35,999 nucleotides of DNA, taken from IMG/VR virus record IMGVR_UViG_2541047899_000011; one strand, given 5' to 3'. The notes beneath the pieces were generated by a model. The model was not told the DNA's origin, did no database searches, and saw only the letters and a list, made by a program, of their open reading frames with translations. Each line of letters opens with the position of its first letter. Position 1 is the first letter of the stretch. Below are positions 1 to 9,376 of this stretch, piece by piece. Source of the DNA: a virus. Lineage: Duplodnaviria > Heunggongvirae > Uroviricota > Caudoviricetes. Position numbers and translations under genes: made by a program.

Positions 1-237
1 ATGATGGTTAGAAATGAAGTAATGAACAAAGACTGGCACCGCGAGTACATCGTTGCCGCTGTGCACACCAAAGGTTTTACATTGCGTGAACTTTCTGAAC
101 GCGCTGGTCTAAAAAAAGACTCTTTAAAAAATGCACTGTATCGCTCATGCCCTAAATATGAACGCATCATAGCCGATGCTATTGGTGTGGAACCTGCGGA
201 GATCTGGCCAAGCCGGTATGCCAGTAAGGCGGCGTAA
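1..237 (+). CDS. ner: Ner-like DNA-binding transcriptional regulator
   Basis: 78 aa; DWHREYIVAAVHTKGFTLRELSERAGLKKDSL...EIWPSRY resembles Mu Ner/Nlp family; directly precedes transposase with TAATG stop-start overlap. Confidence 0.7.
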   Translation: MMVRNEVMNKDWHREYIVAAVHTKGFTLRELSERAGLKKDSLKNALYRSCPKYERIIADAIGVEPAEIWPSRYASKAA

Positions 238-2279
238 TGTTTTATTCAGCCAATGAGCTGGCCGGTCTTCCTGGTTTGCCCGGTACAGTTCAGGGGGTGC
301 GCTGGACGCTCAATCGGATCACAGAGACGCACCCGGAATGGAAGCGCAAGCGTGAAGGCACCAAAGCATTCGAGTATCACATCGACTGCCTGCCCACTGA
401 AGCGCAGAAAGTTTTACGTAAGCGCCTGACTCATCAGGTTCTGGAAGATGCGCAACTGCCCGCCGTGGTTGAGCAGAAGGCAGTTAAAAACGTCACCGTT
501 CGCGATGAACTGGAAGTGATGGTCAAATGCCCGGAGCTGGCATTACGCGAAGTCCAGGCACTGACCGACAAGCAAAAGGCCATCGCTGATGCGCGGATAT
601 TGCTGGCTACCGAAGTGCATAAACTGCGTGAATACGCTGGAATGTCCAGGACAGCAGCAGTAAAACACATCGTTGATGGTATTCGTCAGATGGCATTGCC
701 TGACCGCATTATTGAGGCCGCAGGCACTGCAAACGCCAGACAGGGTAAGCGAACTGGCGTCAGTTGGGGAAGTTTGCAGGAATGGTATTCCGCCTGGCTG
801 ATGGCGCGCGGTGATGCCAATCAGTTACTGGCGTTACTGGCTCCCGGTCATCATAAGGGGACACCGTGGGAGCAGGTCTGGTGGTTGAGCGATTTCTTTA
901 TGTTCTATCGCTCATGGAAGCGCCCGACCGTTGAATATGCGTATCGCGAGTTTTCAGCCTGGTGGCATGAAAAACACGCGAACGATGCGGGAATGCTGGC
1001 GGCACTGCCTTCAGTTCACGCAGTAAGGCGGGTGTTAAGCAGCGTCCCGGTGATTGTTAAGGAGCGTTTCCGCTCCACAGGTTCAGCCTGGCGTTCGCTC
1101 AATCCCTTTGTGCGGCGCGACTGGAGCACATTACCGGTTAATGCGGTATGGGTCGGGGATGGTCACTGTATGAAAATGACCGCGTTTAACCCACTGACCG
1201 GCAATATTTTCCGGCCAGAAGTGACGCTGGTTATGGATGCGGGGCAGCGCTTTGTTGTGGGCTGGTCACTGTCCCTGTCGGAGAACGTGATAGCTGTTGC
1301 TGATGCGTTGCGTTACGGCATGGCACAGCACGGGATACCGCTGATTTATTACTCCGATAACGGGGGCGGTGAAAAAAACCGGGTGCTTGATGCCGATATT
1401 ACCGGGATTCTGCCCCGGCTGGGTGTGGAACATCACACGGGGATACCAGGTAACCCGCAGGGGCGCGGGGTGATTGAACGGGCAAACAAAGGAATACCCA
1501 AAGACGTGGCTCTGAGTTTCCAGACGTACTGCGCAAGGGATGCAGACAGGGAAACCGTAATGATGCAGCAACGGATTATGCAGTCAGCCATTAAGGCCAC
1601 CCACAAAGGGAAAGAGCTGACAAAACGGCAGGTTAAGGCAAGGGATGAAGTCCCCACCTTTGAGCAACTGATGGCAGCCATAGAGCTGGAGGTCAGACGC
1701 TATAACAACCGGCCACACAGCAGCCTACCACGCAAAGAGGATGGCGAATATTACAGCCCGGCAGCGTATCGCCGGAAACTGATAAAAGAGCAGAATGTTG
1801 AAATTGATTTCCTGTCGCCGGAAGAACTGCATGAAATGTTCAGACCGGAAGTGACGCGCAAAACATTTCGCGGGGAAATTCAGTTATTCAACAATATTTA
1901 TTACTCGTATGAGCTGGCCGCAGAGCACGGGAATGAAGTCAGGGTCAGTTACGATATTCATGATGCAAACAGCGTCATTGTCCGGCGGGCTGATGGCTCT
2001 TATATCTGCGATGCCATCTGGAACGGTAACAAGGTTGATGCCTTCGCTAAACCAGTTATCGAACAAAAACTGGAGAAACGCGTCAGGGGCCGCATTGCAC
2101 GGGCCACGCAGAAAATCGAAGAGGCTAAACGCGAGCTTACCCCGGCTATTACGCAGAAGCCTGACTTTAATCTGGGATATGGACTGGAGCGCCCGGAGAA
2201 AAAGGAAAAAGAAGAACTTTATTTATTCGCATCTGAGCGCGAGCGCAATTTAAAGAAAAACGGCACAAACAACCGTTAA
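237..2279 (+). CDS. Mu-type DDE transposase (MuA-like)
   Basis: 680 aa; N-terminal ELAGLPGLP DNA-binding region; central integrase-like core with candidate D-D-E residues (WVGDGH, YYSDNGG, VIERANK); position after ner and before B. Confidence 0.9.
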   Translation: MFYSANELAGLPGLPGTVQGVRWTLNRITETHPEWKRKREGTKAFEYHIDCLPTEAQKVLRKRLTHQVLEDAQLPAVVEQKAVKNVTVRDELEVMVKCPELALREVQALTDKQKAIADARILLATEVHKLREYAGMSRTAAVKHIVDGIRQMALPDRIIEAAGTANARQGKRTGVSWGSLQEWYSAWLMARGDANQLLALLAPGHHKGTPWEQVWWLSDFFMFYRSWKRPTVEYAYREFSAWWHEKHANDAGMLAALPSVHAVRRVLSSVPVIVKERFRSTGSAWRSLNPFVRRDWSTLPVNAVWVGDGHCMKMTAFNPLTGNIFRPEVTLVMDAGQRFVVGWSLSLSENVIAVADALRYGMAQHGIPLIYYSDNGGGEKNRVLDADITGILPRLGVEHHTGIPGNPQGRGVIERANKGIPKDVALSFQTYCARDADRETVMMQQRIMQSAIKATHKGKELTKRQVKARDEVPTFEQLMAAIELEVRRYNNRPHSSLPRKEDGEYYSPAAYRRKLIKEQNVEIDFLSPEELHEMFRPEVTRKTFRGEIQLFNNIYYSYELAAEHGNEVRVSYDIHDANSVIVRRADGSYICDAIWNGNKVDAFAKPVIEQKLEKRVRGRIARATQKIEEAKRELTPAITQKPDFNLGYGLERPEKKEKEELYLFASERERNLKKNGTNNR

Positions 2280-2297: not shown

Positions 2298-3191
2298 ATG
2301 AGTTTAATTACGCAATTAAATGACGTAATGGCCCGTCGCGGCTATACGCAGACCCACGTCGCCCGTGCTATTGGTCGTAGCAGCGCCGTTATCAACCAGT
2401 ATTTACAGGGTAAATATCAGGGCGATATGGCTGATATTGAAGAACGCATTTCTGCCTTTGTGACCCGTGAGCGGGAAAAGGAAAACAGCCGCCGTATTAA
2501 AGCGAAATTTGTTGCCACCGGTATGGCTGCCAAAGGACTGGAAGTGCTGGCCTATGCTCACCTGGAATGTGAAATCTGCGTACTGTATGGCGCGGCAGGT
2601 CTTGGCAAAACAATGATTCTGCGTGAATACGCCGCCAGAAACCGGGATGCGGTCCTGATTGAGGCTGACCCGGGCTATACAGCCAGGACACTGCTTGAGG
2701 AGTTGTGCCGCCAGTTGGGGGTAAAAGTTCGCGGCAATATCCACGAACTGATTGATGCATGTGTGCGAGAACTGCGTGATTCCGGTCGCCTGCTGATGGT
2801 GGACGAGGCTGAACTGCTCCCCTATCGCGCACTGGAGGTTCTGCGCCGTCTACATGACAAAGCGGGTATCGGGATTGTCCTGGCGGGTATGCCACGCCTT
2901 CTGATTAACCTCAAGGGACGTCGCGGTGAGTTCGCCCAGTTATACAGCCGTGTGGCGCTGGCGCTTAACCTGGGCGATACGCTGGCGCAGGAAGATTTTA
3001 ACCAGATAGCCACCGGGCTGATGCCGGAAGCAGCAGAACCGGAAATCAGCGAGGCGCTTTATACACGTTCGCTGGGTAATGCCCGCCGCCTGTTCAAACT
3101 GGCGCGTGGTGTGTACCGGATTTGTGATATCAGCGATGCGCCGGTCAGTGTGCAGGCCATTGATAAATTCGCAGAAATGTTAATTCACTGA
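2298..3191 (+). CDS. Mu B-like AAA+ ATPase, transposition target-DNA activator
   Basis: 297 aa; N-terminal HTH-like region, Walker A GAAGLGKT, Walker B LLMVDEAE; immediately downstream of transposase. Confidence 0.85.
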   Translation: MSLITQLNDVMARRGYTQTHVARAIGRSSAVINQYLQGKYQGDMADIEERISAFVTREREKENSRRIKAKFVATGMAAKGLEVLAYAHLECEICVLYGAAGLGKTMILREYAARNRDAVLIEADPGYTARTLLEELCRQLGVKVRGNIHELIDACVRELRDSGRLLMVDEAELLPYRALEVLRRLHDKAGIGIVLAGMPRLLINLKGRRGEFAQLYSRVALALNLGDTLAQEDFNQIATGLMPEAAEPEISEALYTRSLGNARRLFKLARGVYRICDISDAPVSVQAIDKFAEMLIH

Positions 3192-6621: not shown

Positions 6622-6806
6622 ACCAGCAAACCAGAATAAGCGATAAGAGCCTGACCAGACTGATTGCCGATGCGGACAAGGTGCTGGAGCGGAACACCCC
6701 CGTTGCCGATGAGGAATGGTGGCAGGATTTCCGGGCCGCAATGCTGGAACTTCAGGAGCGCCGCAGGGCTGACAGTGCAGAGTCAGTAGTAAATACAGGA
6801 GAATGA
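6618..6806 (+). CDS. hypothetical protein (62 aa)
   Basis: Start overlaps previous stop. Confidence 0.4.
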   Translation: MNQQTRISDKSLTRLIADADKVLERNTPVADEEWWQDFRAAMLELQERRRADSAESVVNTGE

Positions 6807-6810
6807 AACG

Positions 6811-6987
6811 ATGAAAAACCGTAAAGCAAAACGACTTCTTTTACAGCGACCTGTGCGTGTGGTGGAGCTGGTTATTAGCAACCATAAGATAGCGGTACTC
6901 CATCCATTTGGTCAGGTGGCTTTTGCCGCAAAGCGTAAGCCTACTGCGTCACAGAACAGGCGGAATAAAGGGTACGCAGTACGATGA
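6811..6987 (+). CDS. small basic protein, paralogue 1 (58 aa, MKNRKAK...)
   Basis: Not in the ORF track (below 60 aa); translated by hand: MKNRKAKRLLLQRPVRVVELVISNHKIAVLHPFGQVAFAAKRKPTASQNRRNKGYAVR. Confidence 0.4.
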   Translation: MKNRKAKRLLLQRPVRVVELVISNHKIAVLHPFGQVAFAAKRKPTASQNRRNKGYAVR

Positions 6988-7160
6988 AAAACCGTAAGGC
7001 AAAAATTCTGTTAGCTCGCAGAAACGGCTTTGATGTCTGGCGGTGGGTGAGGATTAGTAACAGACGGTTGAGGTTGACAGGGTTTTTAGGGGGTATGGGG
7101 CACAGTTGTTGCCAAAAGCCCAGCGCGGCGCAAAACCGCAGGAAAAATCACGGTATGTAA
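6984..7160 (+). CDS. small basic protein, paralogue 2 (58 aa, MKNRKAK...)
   Basis: ATGA stop-start overlap with paralogue 1; MKNRKAKILLARRNGFDVWRWVRISNRRLRLTGFLGGMGHSCCQKPSAAQNRRKNHGM; shares the N-terminus and a C-terminal QNRR motif with paralogue 1. Confidence 0.4.
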   Translation: MKNRKAKILLARRNGFDVWRWVRISNRRLRLTGFLGGMGHSCCQKPSAAQNRRKNHGM

Positions 7161-7172
7161 AGGAGGTACCAG

Positions 7173-7586
7173 GTGAAGAAAATGATTTTTGTGGCGGTAT
7201 TGCTGACAATTACCCAACAGGCGCAGGCCTCAGCAGTTATTGTGGCATCTGCCGCTGCGACCACGGCTGCTACCGCAGCTGCTGCGAACTCTGCGAATAT
7301 CGCAAATCAACAGGCACAGCGTGCTGCTAATGCATCAGCCAGTGCTCTCCCGATTTCTGTTAAGGGCAGTAAGCAAAATCTGGGGTTCATAACGTGCGGT
7401 AAGCGTTCTTCTGAAGCTGTAGGCTCACTGGGATGTACGGTATATGGCGATGGTGAGAGCAGAGAAATTCCATGGAAAACGTGGCCCGGATACGTTCTTG
7501 GCTCGAAGCTCCCGGTCAGTTATGAGGTAAACGCCGTGTCGTTTGACCACTATAACGGTGTGGCAACTGTCTATTTCACATACTGA
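7173..7586 (+). CDS. secreted protein with Ala/Thr-rich linker (signal peptide predicted by eye)
   Basis: GTG start 6 nt after AGGAGG; MKKMIFVAVLLTITQQAQA then a likely AQA cleavage site; mature part has 2 Cys and an aromatic C-terminus. Confidence 0.6.
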   Translation: MKKMIFVAVLLTITQQAQASAVIVASAAATTAATAAAANSANIANQQAQRAANASASALPISVKGSKQNLGFITCGKRSSEAVGSLGCTVYGDGESREIPWKTWPGYVLGSKLPVSYEVNAVSFDHYNGVATVYFTY

Positions 7587-8099: not shown

Positions 8100-8127
8100 G
8101 CAGACCAAAACATATGTTTTGGTCTGC
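8100..8127. repeat. perfect 28-bp palindrome GCAGACCAAAACATATGTTTTGGTCTGC
   Basis: Exact dyad symmetry centred on CATATG; a third copy of the half-site GTTTTGGTC at 8138-8146. Confidence 0.8.
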
Positions 8128-8149
8128 CAAAAGTAGTGTTTTGGTCATT

Positions 8150-8428
8150 ATGAAGATTGAACAAATCGGAATGGCAGCTTTCAGGCAACAGGCTGAAAGC
8201 GGTGGCGTGGATGAGTTCGTCGTGCAGCGGTTCGGTGGTGTGTATCACCTCTTTGCTGTGAATCGTCGCGCCGGGGTGTCCTATTTTCTACAGGAACGCC
8301 GTGGCGATTACAAGACGTGGCTGTCTCTTGACCGTGCCGCTGCGTTCCTGTCAGGGATTGGCGTTTCACGTTTTACCGTGCGTTTTGAGGATAACAAACA
8401 TGCTGAAAAAGATGATCGGAGCCATTAA
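8150..8428 (+). CDS. hypothetical protein (92 aa)
   Basis: ATG 8150 just downstream of the palindrome; an in-frame ATG at 8114 lies at the palindrome centre; no clear SD for either. Confidence 0.4.
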   Translation: MKIEQIGMAAFRQQAESGGVDEFVVQRFGGVYHLFAVNRRAGVSYFLQERRGDYKTWLSLDRAAAFLSGIGVSRFTVRFEDNKHAEKDDRSH

Positions 8429-8813
8429 AGCCGGTCAGGCGTATCTGGGGTGGGATGATGTCCTTTATCGCCAGACGCTGGCCCGCCTGACCGGTAAAAC
8501 CAGCACCACACGCTGCAACCTCGATGAACTGCGCATCATCCGGGAATACATGCACGAACAGGGATTTCCGCGTAAAGCCCCCGCCGGTAAAGGTCGCCGC
8601 CCCCGTGTGGCAATGAGCAGAAAATCGGTATTATCCAAAATTGAAGCGTTGCTGGCTGATGCCGGTCGTTCCTGGGCATATGCGGAAGGACTGGCATCTC
8701 ACATGTATAAGCAACATGTGATCGAATGGCTGACAGATGATCAACTGTTCGGGGTGATGGTGGCGCTGACAAAAGACGCCAGAAAACGAGCCAGAGCAGC
8801 ACGTAAACAATAA
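8400..8813 (+). CDS. gemA: GemA-like regulatory protein
   Basis: 137 aa from ATG 8400; LGWDDVLYRQTLARLTGKTSTTRCNLDELRIIREYMHEQGF and C-terminal WAYAEGLASHMYKQ resemble Mu GemA; located just before mor. Confidence 0.7.
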   Translation: MLKKMIGAIKAGQAYLGWDDVLYRQTLARLTGKTSTTRCNLDELRIIREYMHEQGFPRKAPAGKGRRPRVAMSRKSVLSKIEALLADAGRSWAYAEGLASHMYKQHVIEWLTDDQLFGVMVALTKDARKRARAARKQ

Positions 8814-8818
8814 AGAAT

Positions 8819-8846
8819 CAGCCCCTGCCTTGCAGGGGCTTTTTTG
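8819..8846 (+). terminator. intrinsic terminator after gemA
   Basis: 8-bp GC stem GCCCCTGC/GCAGGGGC (8821-8828 / 8832-8839) followed by TTTTTT (8840-8845). Confidence 0.7.
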
Positions 8847-8908: not shown

Positions 8909-9376
8909 ATGCAGACCTTCAGTGAAACAGATCTTCGCGATGCGCAGGCACTGCTGCCCGATTCCGTGCAGCAACTGATTAGCGTGATTGGCTTCCCCGC
9001 CCTGACCCGGTTGATTCGTTCTTTTGGTGGCGTGACGTTAAGCGGTAAAACCGGCGTACACGCCGGACGCACCGGCGGTGTCCATGCCCTGTTACATGAT
9101 GTGCTGACCGAAGACGAAATCAACAAACTGATCCGCTTTCTTGGCGGTGCACCGTTTTACATTCCCCGTTGTGATCATGCGTTACGTGCCCTGCGTAACA
9201 CCCGTTTTATGGCTGATTTACAGCAGCATGTAAAAGACGGATGCTCACACCGGCAGGCGCTGGCACTACTCTGTCCCCGTTACGGGATTTCAGACCGGTA
9301 TGCATGGCAACTGATACACCGACGACAAAAACAGACTTCGCTGAAAAGCCCCACCCAGGTGGGGCTTTTTGATTAA
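8909..9376 (+). CDS. mor: Mor/C-family transcriptional activator
   Basis: 155 aa; C-terminal region with GGAPFYIPR and an HTH-like segment typical of Mu Mor/C; follows gemA. Confidence 0.75.
   Translation: MQTFSETDLRDAQALLPDSVQQLISVIGFPALTRLIRSFGGVTLSGKTGVHAGRTGGVHALLHDVLTEDEINKLIRFLGGAPFYIPRCDHALRALRNTRFMADLQQHVKDGCSHRQALALLCPRYGISDRYAWQLIHRRQKQTSLKSPTQVGLFD
9346..9371 (+). terminator. intrinsic terminator-like hairpin overlapping the 3' end of mor
   Basis: Stem GCCCCAC/GTGGGGC (9348-9354 / 9359-9365) then TTTTT (9366-9370); lies inside the last codons of mor. Confidence 0.55.

Follow-up and report, generated by a model that had tools for sequence, protein, structure and literature searches.

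Coupled small basic genes of the PHROG 1380 family in the early region of a Mu-like prophage

Results and discussion

The gene pair and its Mu-like surroundings

The window analyzed here is a stretch of 35,999 nucleotides from a virus of the class Caudoviricetes (IMG/VR record IMGVR_UViG_2541047899_000011). It carries two genes of 58 codons, ORF1 and ORF2, which lie head to tail and overlap at an ATGA, in which the TGA stop codon of ORF1 runs into the ATG of ORF2 (Table 1). ORF1 also begins with an ATG, located 4 nt past the stop codon of the preceding ORF. The initial annotation had described this arrangement, together with a start shared at 20 of 21 nucleotides (MKNRKAK), a QNRR motif close to both C termini, a strongly basic composition of both products and an AGGAGG directly 3′ of the pair, and it was accurate in all these respects. 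The two starts differ by one base (ATGAAAAACCGTAAAGCAAAA in ORF1 vs ...AAGGCAAAA in ORF2), and the 21-mer is found at these two sites only in the 36-kb window when three mismatches are allowed, with no occurrence expected by chance. Over 53 residues, the proteins share 43% identity (E = 1e-9), and each contains 15 lysines and arginines and a single acidic residue. The AGGAGG precedes a gene with a GTG start.

Table 1. Features of the gene pair, of its surroundings and of related units in two Stx-converting phages
Feature	Position	Strand	Comment
MuA-type transposase	237-2279		
MuB-like AAA ATPase	2298-3191		
Cassette, DNA common to unrelated phages	6796..7151	+	mobile two-gene cassette, blastn
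Shine-Dalgarno of ORF1, AGGAG	6797..6801	+	9 nt 5′ of the ATG, read from sequence
ORF1	6811..6987	+	58 aa, A-type PHROG 1380 member, MKNRKAK...ISNHK...TASQNRR...KGYAVR, net charge +14
ATGA stop/start overlap of ORF1 and ORF2	6984..6987	+	translational coupling junction
ORF2	6984..7160	+	58 aa, B-type PHROG 1380 member, MKNRKAK...WRWVRISNRR...KPSAAQNRRKNH, net charge +14
Shine-Dalgarno of the downstream gene, AGGAGG	7161..7166	+	precedes GTG 7173
Signal-peptide protein	7173-7586	+	137 aa, phrog_8805 (unknown function), GTG start
GemA	8301-8813	+	
Terminator hairpin	8820-8840		first strong terminator after the pair
Mor	8909-9376		late genes then follow
933W (L001, AF125520)	2504-2692 and 2622-2909		unannotated 62-aa family member overlapped by L0068
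VT2-Sakai (L128)	1622-1909		H0078, same out-of-frame overlap

A Mu-like setting had been proposed for this DNA, and a MuA-type transposase, a MuB-like ATPase, GemA and Mor are all present in it. The window also encodes proteins with DUF3164, DUF7448 and DUF2786. Within the Mu-like early operon, the pair is located in the accessory section, between B and gemA, and the ORFs around it are all on the same strand and tightly packed; the gene immediately upstream belongs to phrog_14672. No site resembling a promoter or a terminator was found inside the pair; downstream of it, a strong terminator first occurs past gemA. This is a symmetric, GC-rich hairpin of 9 bp (7 GC) between gemA and mor with T-runs on both strands. 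It is the sole convincing intrinsic terminator between 3 and 10 kb, and the early transcript probably ends there. At gemA, two long plus-strand ORFs (8114-8428 and the GemA ORF) overlap by 128 nt. In the near-identical prophage of STEC313, the PGAP call for gp16/GemA is shorter (396 nt), so the listed 170-aa, GTG-initiated GemA ORF is probably over-extended at its 5′ end.

Both genes belong to PHROG 1380

One profile, phrog_1380, matches both proteins over their full length: residues 1–58 of ORF1 align to positions 1–60 of 62 (E = 2.1e-22) and residues 1–57 of ORF2 to positions 1–57 of 62 (E = 2e-26), which bears out their proposed paralogy. When the window is translated in all six frames, a profile built from homologs also recovers both ORFs (E = 4e-25 and 7e-32). 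PHROG 1380 is a catalogued phage protein family of unknown function, the entries of which are all labelled hypothetical or prophage proteins. Homologs of ORF1 are 81–97% identical to it, and those of ORF2 up to 93%. At 50% identity, the family comprises 43 clusters out of 1.84 billion representatives, all consisting of proteins of ~55–70 aa or of fusions of such units; at 90% identity, there are 185 clusters. According to protein searches, its hosts belong to Enterobacteriaceae only (Escherichia, Salmonella, Citrobacter, Enterobacter, Klebsiella and Phytobacter); this range is drawn from those searches, and a scan of a one-genome-per-species collection returned two loci only.

The family signature is M(K/N)NRKA(K/R)-x-hydrophobic…(I/V/L)SN(R/H)(R/K)…G…(K/R)x(S/T)A(A/S)QNR(W/R)KNH, followed by a short tail. 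Its motifs occur in order in ORF1 (MKNRKAK, ISNHK, TASQNRR) and in ORF2 (MKNRKAK, ISNRR, SAAQNRR), and six residues (N3, R4, K5, S25, N51 and R52) are invariant in 47 diverse members. The net charge of 83 distinct proteins ranges from +10 to +18, with a mean pI of 11.65–11.83. The Cys pair of ORF2 (HSCC), which had been singled out earlier, is present, but it is confined to one subfamily and is not a property of PHROG 1380. The cysteines vary between subfamilies, which rules out a metal site at this position.

ORF1 and ORF2 share their MKNRKAK start, core and C-terminal motif with other members of the family (e.g. WP_370926431.1 and YP_009624945.1 of RCS47), as well as size, charge and a place in the early region of temperate enterobacterial phages. 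There is no essential difference between them and the rest of PHROG 1380, although a Mu-like host genome is unusual for the family. The tail of ORF2 is shortened, ending in NHGM and the stop codon instead of the usual NHLRTKGE and stop, because the DNA passes into the Mu-like backbone at a recombination junction located at ~7151. ORF1 and ORF2 are ordinary members of an orphan family that had already been catalogued, and we see no indication of a new type of system.

Searches of ORF1 and ORF2 against Pfam, NCBIfam, PADLOC and the PDB (sequence and profile), as well as fold searches, gave no significant match. No homolog was found among the named small proteins of the E. coli K-12 cryptic prophages Rac and Qin (best E = 0.23). 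A literature search for the peptide string returned no match, and the unit is absent from the supplements of two EHEC Ribo-seq papers.

A-type units are always followed by another unit

The family is made up of two types of units. A-type units carry ISNHK, end in a KGYAVR tail and are 58 aa long, and B-type units carry an ISNRR-like motif, usually end in LRTKGE and are 58–65 aa long. The start motif was found at 120 loci in IMG/VR, and relaxed matching within 124 loci gave 205 units with 100 distinct complete DNA sequences. An A-type unit joined at −4 to a B-type unit is found in 63 loci, a B-type unit alone in 45, two B-type units joined at −4 in seven, and an A-B-B array in one. There is no locus with a lone A-type unit. 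The −4 junction is kept in 72 arrays across many phages (63 A-B, 7 B-B, one A-B-B and one A-B...B), which substantiates the translational coupling proposed for the pair. The initial annotation had presented the two genes as tandem paralogs. They are indeed paralogous, but the A-then-B architecture recurs across loci, and the pair is therefore an old, conserved heteropair of an A-type and a B-type unit rather than a recent local duplication. The A and B subtypes and the A-then-B rule appear not to have been described before.

Larger arrays also occur. In IMGVR_UViG_3300008491_000015 (locus L054), three successive units of 58, 60 and 63 aa, each with an ATGA overlap, are found on the minus strand (script offsets 1193-1737 on the reverse-complemented locus). 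At locus L065, an A-B pair is accompanied by an extra B-type unit 742 nt downstream.

Judging from their sequence, the tails of the family double as ribosome-binding sites. The A-type tail encodes an AAAGGG 11 nt upstream of the second ATG, so that A-type tails (…AAAGGGTACGC…ATGA) run into the next unit. The B-type tail, KGE and stop in most relatives, corresponds to AAAGGAGAATGAtATG and gives the next gene its Shine-Dalgarno sequence and start context. Upstream of the first unit, a GGAG at the same distance as in ORF1 is kept in other family loci.

The layout of the pair invites comparison with antagonistic modules. Two small genes with an ATGA overlap and an upstream partner that never stands alone recall type II toxin–antitoxin operons, and the A-type protein could accordingly restrain the B-type protein, either as an antitoxin or as the inhibitor of an effector; alternatively, the pair could be an anti-defence factor. 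Phage host-takeover and anti-defence genes typically sit among early accessory genes, as this family does, and the family is both lineage-restricted and mobile. However, A and B are paralogs (43% identity) of equal size and charge, unlike the partners in known toxin–antitoxin pairs. B-type units that are alone in 45 loci or paired with each other in seven also imply that B is not obligately neutralized by A. A PADLOC search with the pair and three neighbours gave no match at E ≤ 1, and dN/dS does not exceed 1 in any region of the unit (see below), so an arms race has left no signature. We consider a module of either kind unlikely.

Both genes are under purifying selection for their protein sequence

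Pairwise dN/dS values (Nei–Gojobori) were calculated over the 100 distinct unit DNAs. The value is 0.25 in the proposed frame and 0.96–1.10 when these alignments are shifted into the +1 and +2 frames; a Ka/Ks analysis had been named as a check on the coding status, and its outcome is purifying selection that is specific to the proposed frame. Differences in this set are distributed over codon positions 1, 2 and 3 as 1097, 943 and 2358. The other two sense frames are open in no unit and the antisense frames in at most 12% of units. Invariant columns are encoded by varied synonymous codons (AGC, AGT and TCA for Ser; CGC, AGG and AGA for Arg; four codons for Gly; the codons of Asn also vary), which means that selection acts on the amino acids. 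The constraint is strongest at the N terminus (dN/dS of 0.04–0.09, with dS of 0.11–0.64); the values are 0.16 in a predicted β core, 0.12–0.21 in the C-terminal motif, 0.33–0.41 in a variable middle and ~0.7 in the tail. The values for the middle reveal no diversifying selection there. ORF1 and ORF2 are genuine, selectively maintained protein-coding genes.

The pattern of strongly conserved unit ends and a variable middle, and the existence of a few frameshifted database copies, would also suit a non-coding region in which the 21-mer and the conserved ends belong to a small RNA, a regulatory DNA repeat or a recombination site. In-frame selection against a neutral background in the shifted frames effectively refutes this explanation, which is left with a very small probability. 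Synonymous changes are found inside the conserved motifs, Rfam matches are at chance level (E ≥ 1.8, far under the gathering scores), folding of the RNA is not more stable than that of shuffled sequence (z = −0.06), and promoters and terminators are absent inside the pair. The variation of synonymous codons within invariant motifs likewise rules out gene conversion or a recombination site as the cause of the conserved ends.

A different possibility is that the peptides themselves matter little and that the units are translational coupling adaptors, or selfish filler ORFs, which feed ribosomes to whatever lies downstream. The A-rich start region (AUG AAA AAC CGU AAA GCA AAA), the KG (AAAGG...) that serves as the Shine-Dalgarno sequence of the next unit or gene in the tail of every subfamily, the distance of 0–1 nt between a stop and the next start, the weak protein-level constraint in the tail and the variety of downstream genes between phages are all compatible with such a role. 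Nevertheless, the constraint is strong in the β core and C-terminal motif, far from the junctions, and the invariant S-N and Q-N-R survive synonymous codon changes. Length and motif order are kept across subfamilies that are less than 45% identical, and a pure adaptor needs neither 58–65 conserved codons nor a specific A-then-B order. A role as adaptors is therefore quite unlikely to account for the family.

A mobile cassette in early regions of temperate phages

The cassette listed in Table 1 is 87% identical at the DNA level to segments of P1-like phages (RCS47 and P1 variants) and of Stx2c phages, and the flanking DNA is unrelated (blastn). It runs from the Shine-Dalgarno sequence of ORF1 to just before the stop codon of ORF2. 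Some phages match only its ORF1 half or only its ORF2 half. In tblastn searches, 84 of 50,697 phage records carry the family. Among them are the Stx-converting lambdoid phages 933W, VT2-Sakai, Min27 and the PA series, the P1-like RCS47, phiV10-type phages, TL-2011b/c and Sasha-like phages of Salmonella. The family is thus not Mu-specific, being found mostly in lambdoid/Stx, P1-like and phiV10-like phages. The unit is carried by 547 of 5426 complete E. coli genomes (~10%, blastn), and 263 of the 638 matching places in these genomes are on plasmids. Parts of two tandem units are also present in a 228-nt contig assigned to 'Acinetobacter idrijaensis' (JQCU01000388.1, locus L125), most likely as a result of assembly contamination.

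In 933W and VT2-Sakai, a single B-type unit is located directly downstream of an ea22 homolog, and an ea22-like gene lies upstream of the family unit in RCS47 as well. Early transcription from pL has been described for ea22 and the exo-xis region of Phi24B, a phage of the 933W type (PMC4195576). The family unit is mentioned neither in this paper nor in a second one on the exo-xis region (PMC10789677). The lambdoid exo-xis genes (ea22, ea8.5, orf60a, orf61, orf63 and orf73) and the semi-essential early region of Mu share their neighbourhood with the family, and the accessory genes of both regions are small, dispensable, early and mosaic. Unlike the A/B pair, the exo-xis genes are not tandem paralogs. 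No sequence kinship of the unit to its neighbouring genes was seen. The exo-xis and Mu early accessory regions are poorly understood, and in lambdoid phages they influence the lysis–lysogeny decision.

The product of the gene that follows the pair in the window bears a clear signal peptide (MKKMIFVAVLLTITQQAQA) and a segment rich in Ala. Phage Av-05 and E. coli plasmids of ~94–109 kb carry the same gene at 80–86% DNA identity, and it appears to be another cassette, mobile in its own right, next to that of ORF1 and ORF2.

Annotation gaps and degenerate copies

Genes of this kind had been expected to be easily missed by annotation, and one or both units are indeed lacking from the annotations of STEC313, RCS47 and 933W. 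In the STEC313 prophage, which is 99% identical, PGAP calls only ORF2 (WP_370926431.1). In RCS47, only the A-type unit, the counterpart of ORF1, is annotated. In 933W and VT2-Sakai, the family unit is unannotated, and the genes annotated in its place (L0068 and H0078, respectively) start from a GTG and overlap the unit out of frame. Since the family unit went unannotated, the start of L0068 is probably wrong. For L0068 and H0078 alike, a likelier start is the ATG that directly follows the unit; in 933W, this is position 2694 of L001 (MAIAASYTMHLYCDC…, 69 aa), just past the GGAGAATGAtATG of the unit.

The databases also contain degenerate and fused proteins (P0072, P0009/P0094 and P0015; loci L005, L038, L068 and L083). 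The fusions, which are of the read-through or frameshift type, include a 119-aa A+B protein and an Ea22-like::B protein with PF13935. A variant with a frameshifted C terminus is found on 91 contigs. There are also truncated, 22-aa A-type stubs with an intact B-type unit 105 nt later.

Possible function

Beyond the demonstrated coding status, selection, family membership, architecture and distribution of the units, we favour, with modest confidence, a reading in which ORF1 and ORF2 are coupled paralogous genes for basic proteins on a mobile early cassette, and in which their products act together on a polyanion, A with B. In this reading, the two genes are co-transcribed and translationally coupled, and give rise to cytoplasmic proteins of ~60 aa with a net charge of +14 (family pI of about 11.7). 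The cassette, which has neither a promoter nor a terminator of its own, has been moved by recombination from one early accessory region of temperate enterobacterial phages to another. In the window, it lies in the Mu-like early operon, with the transposition genes on one side and gemA/mor on the other; elsewhere, it is found in the exo-xis/ea22 region of lambdoid phages and in genomes of the P1-like and phiV10-like types. The core of the cassette is a B-type unit, which can do without a partner, and A-type units are found only immediately before a B-type unit, joined to it by the ATGA. Both proteins would be made early after induction or infection and, because their translation is coupled, in roughly equal amounts. 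Their charge suggests that they bind a polyanionic target, most likely RNA or DNA. The gene order suggests that the A-type protein most likely acts together with the B-type protein, for example as a heteromer, and the two may modify some process of the host or the phage that growth does not require.

Conceptually, such a family is unsurprising, as small orphan early genes abound in temperate phages. The present analysis adds proof that the units are coding, the rule that A precedes B, the boundaries of the cassette and the gaps in annotation, including one in Stx phages. The family of ~60-codon genes is inconsistently annotated in medically important Stx-converting phages and in P1-like phage-plasmids. 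With its A-then-B rule, strong selection and extreme charge, it is a tractable candidate for functional work on small proteins.

An AlphaFold2 model based on the 47-sequence alignment predicts the order α1 (residues 4–13), β1 (20–25), β2 (28–32), β3 (38–43), α2 (48–56), which is the topology of dsRBD and HicA proteins. This topology, the size and the charge recall HicA and dsRBD, and the family was therefore compared with K-12 hicA and with HicA chains from the PDB. If the likeness reflected kinship, the units would be divergent dsRBD-like or HicA-like RNA binders, either a pair of mRNA interferase-like toxins or catalytically dead binders used for host takeover. HicA (PF07927; PDB ids 6hpb, 4c26, 4p78 and 1whz) is similar in being basic, ~58–66 aa long (58 in E. 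coli) and encoded by a small gene in mobile elements, and the α-β-β-β-α order predicted for the family is also that of HicA, with an S-N-H/R turn in the family, ISN(H/R), at the place of GSNH in E. coli HicA. In an hhalign comparison of A-type units with five PDB HicA sequences, ISNH falls on GS(N)H over 40 columns, and HicA-like or toxin entries are among the weak Foldseek matches. Comparisons of sequence, profile and fold, however, gave no significant similarity. The Pfam HicA profile did not match any of the 47 family members at E ≤ 10, and the hhalign probability is 0.65% against E. coli HicA and, against the five-sequence HicA alignment, 0.16% for the family and 0.94% for the A-type. The catalytic His of HicA is replaced by Arg in ORF2 and in all B-type units (ISNRR), His being found in the A-type only, the motif of the C-terminal helix of the family (SAAQNRWKNH) is unrelated to that of HicA, and no HicB-like gene adjoins the pair, the neighbours of which belong to phrog_14672 and phrog_8805. 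With profile probabilities of 0.2–0.9%, no His in the B-type and no HicB neighbour, kinship with HicA is unsupported, and we regard this reading as very unlikely.

An extension of it is likewise very unlikely: the A/B pair would be a heteromeric dsRBD/HicA-like RNA-binding factor for host takeover, with the A-type protein, in which a Ser-Asn-His turn like that of HicA is kept, in a catalytic or regulatory role and the B-type protein as a non-catalytic scaffold. If true, this would make the pair a new class of phage early effector, unannotated beside ea22 in 933W-type Stx phages and deployed by temperate enterobacterial phages, Stx-converting ones among them, at the start of the lytic cycle.

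A further comparison is with the arginine-rich-motif peptides of lambda N and HK022 Nun, which are short, very basic, phage-encoded and early like the family. The A-A-Q-N-R-W-K of the family loosely recalls the AQW-K segment of the N arginine-rich motif, a likeness that has no statistical support. In contrast to these peptides, the family has a predicted β core, and no boxB partner of the lambda N kind was identified for it. The only match in the PDB, no more than a curiosity, is a 16-residue one at chance level (E = 5.7) to the coat protein of phage MS2, in which K(K/R)xSAAQNRWK (ORF2 residues ~43–54, window positions ~7110–7145) aligns to coat protein residues 42–57 (YKVTCSVRQSSAQNRK). This segment is part of the RNA-binding surface of the coat protein.
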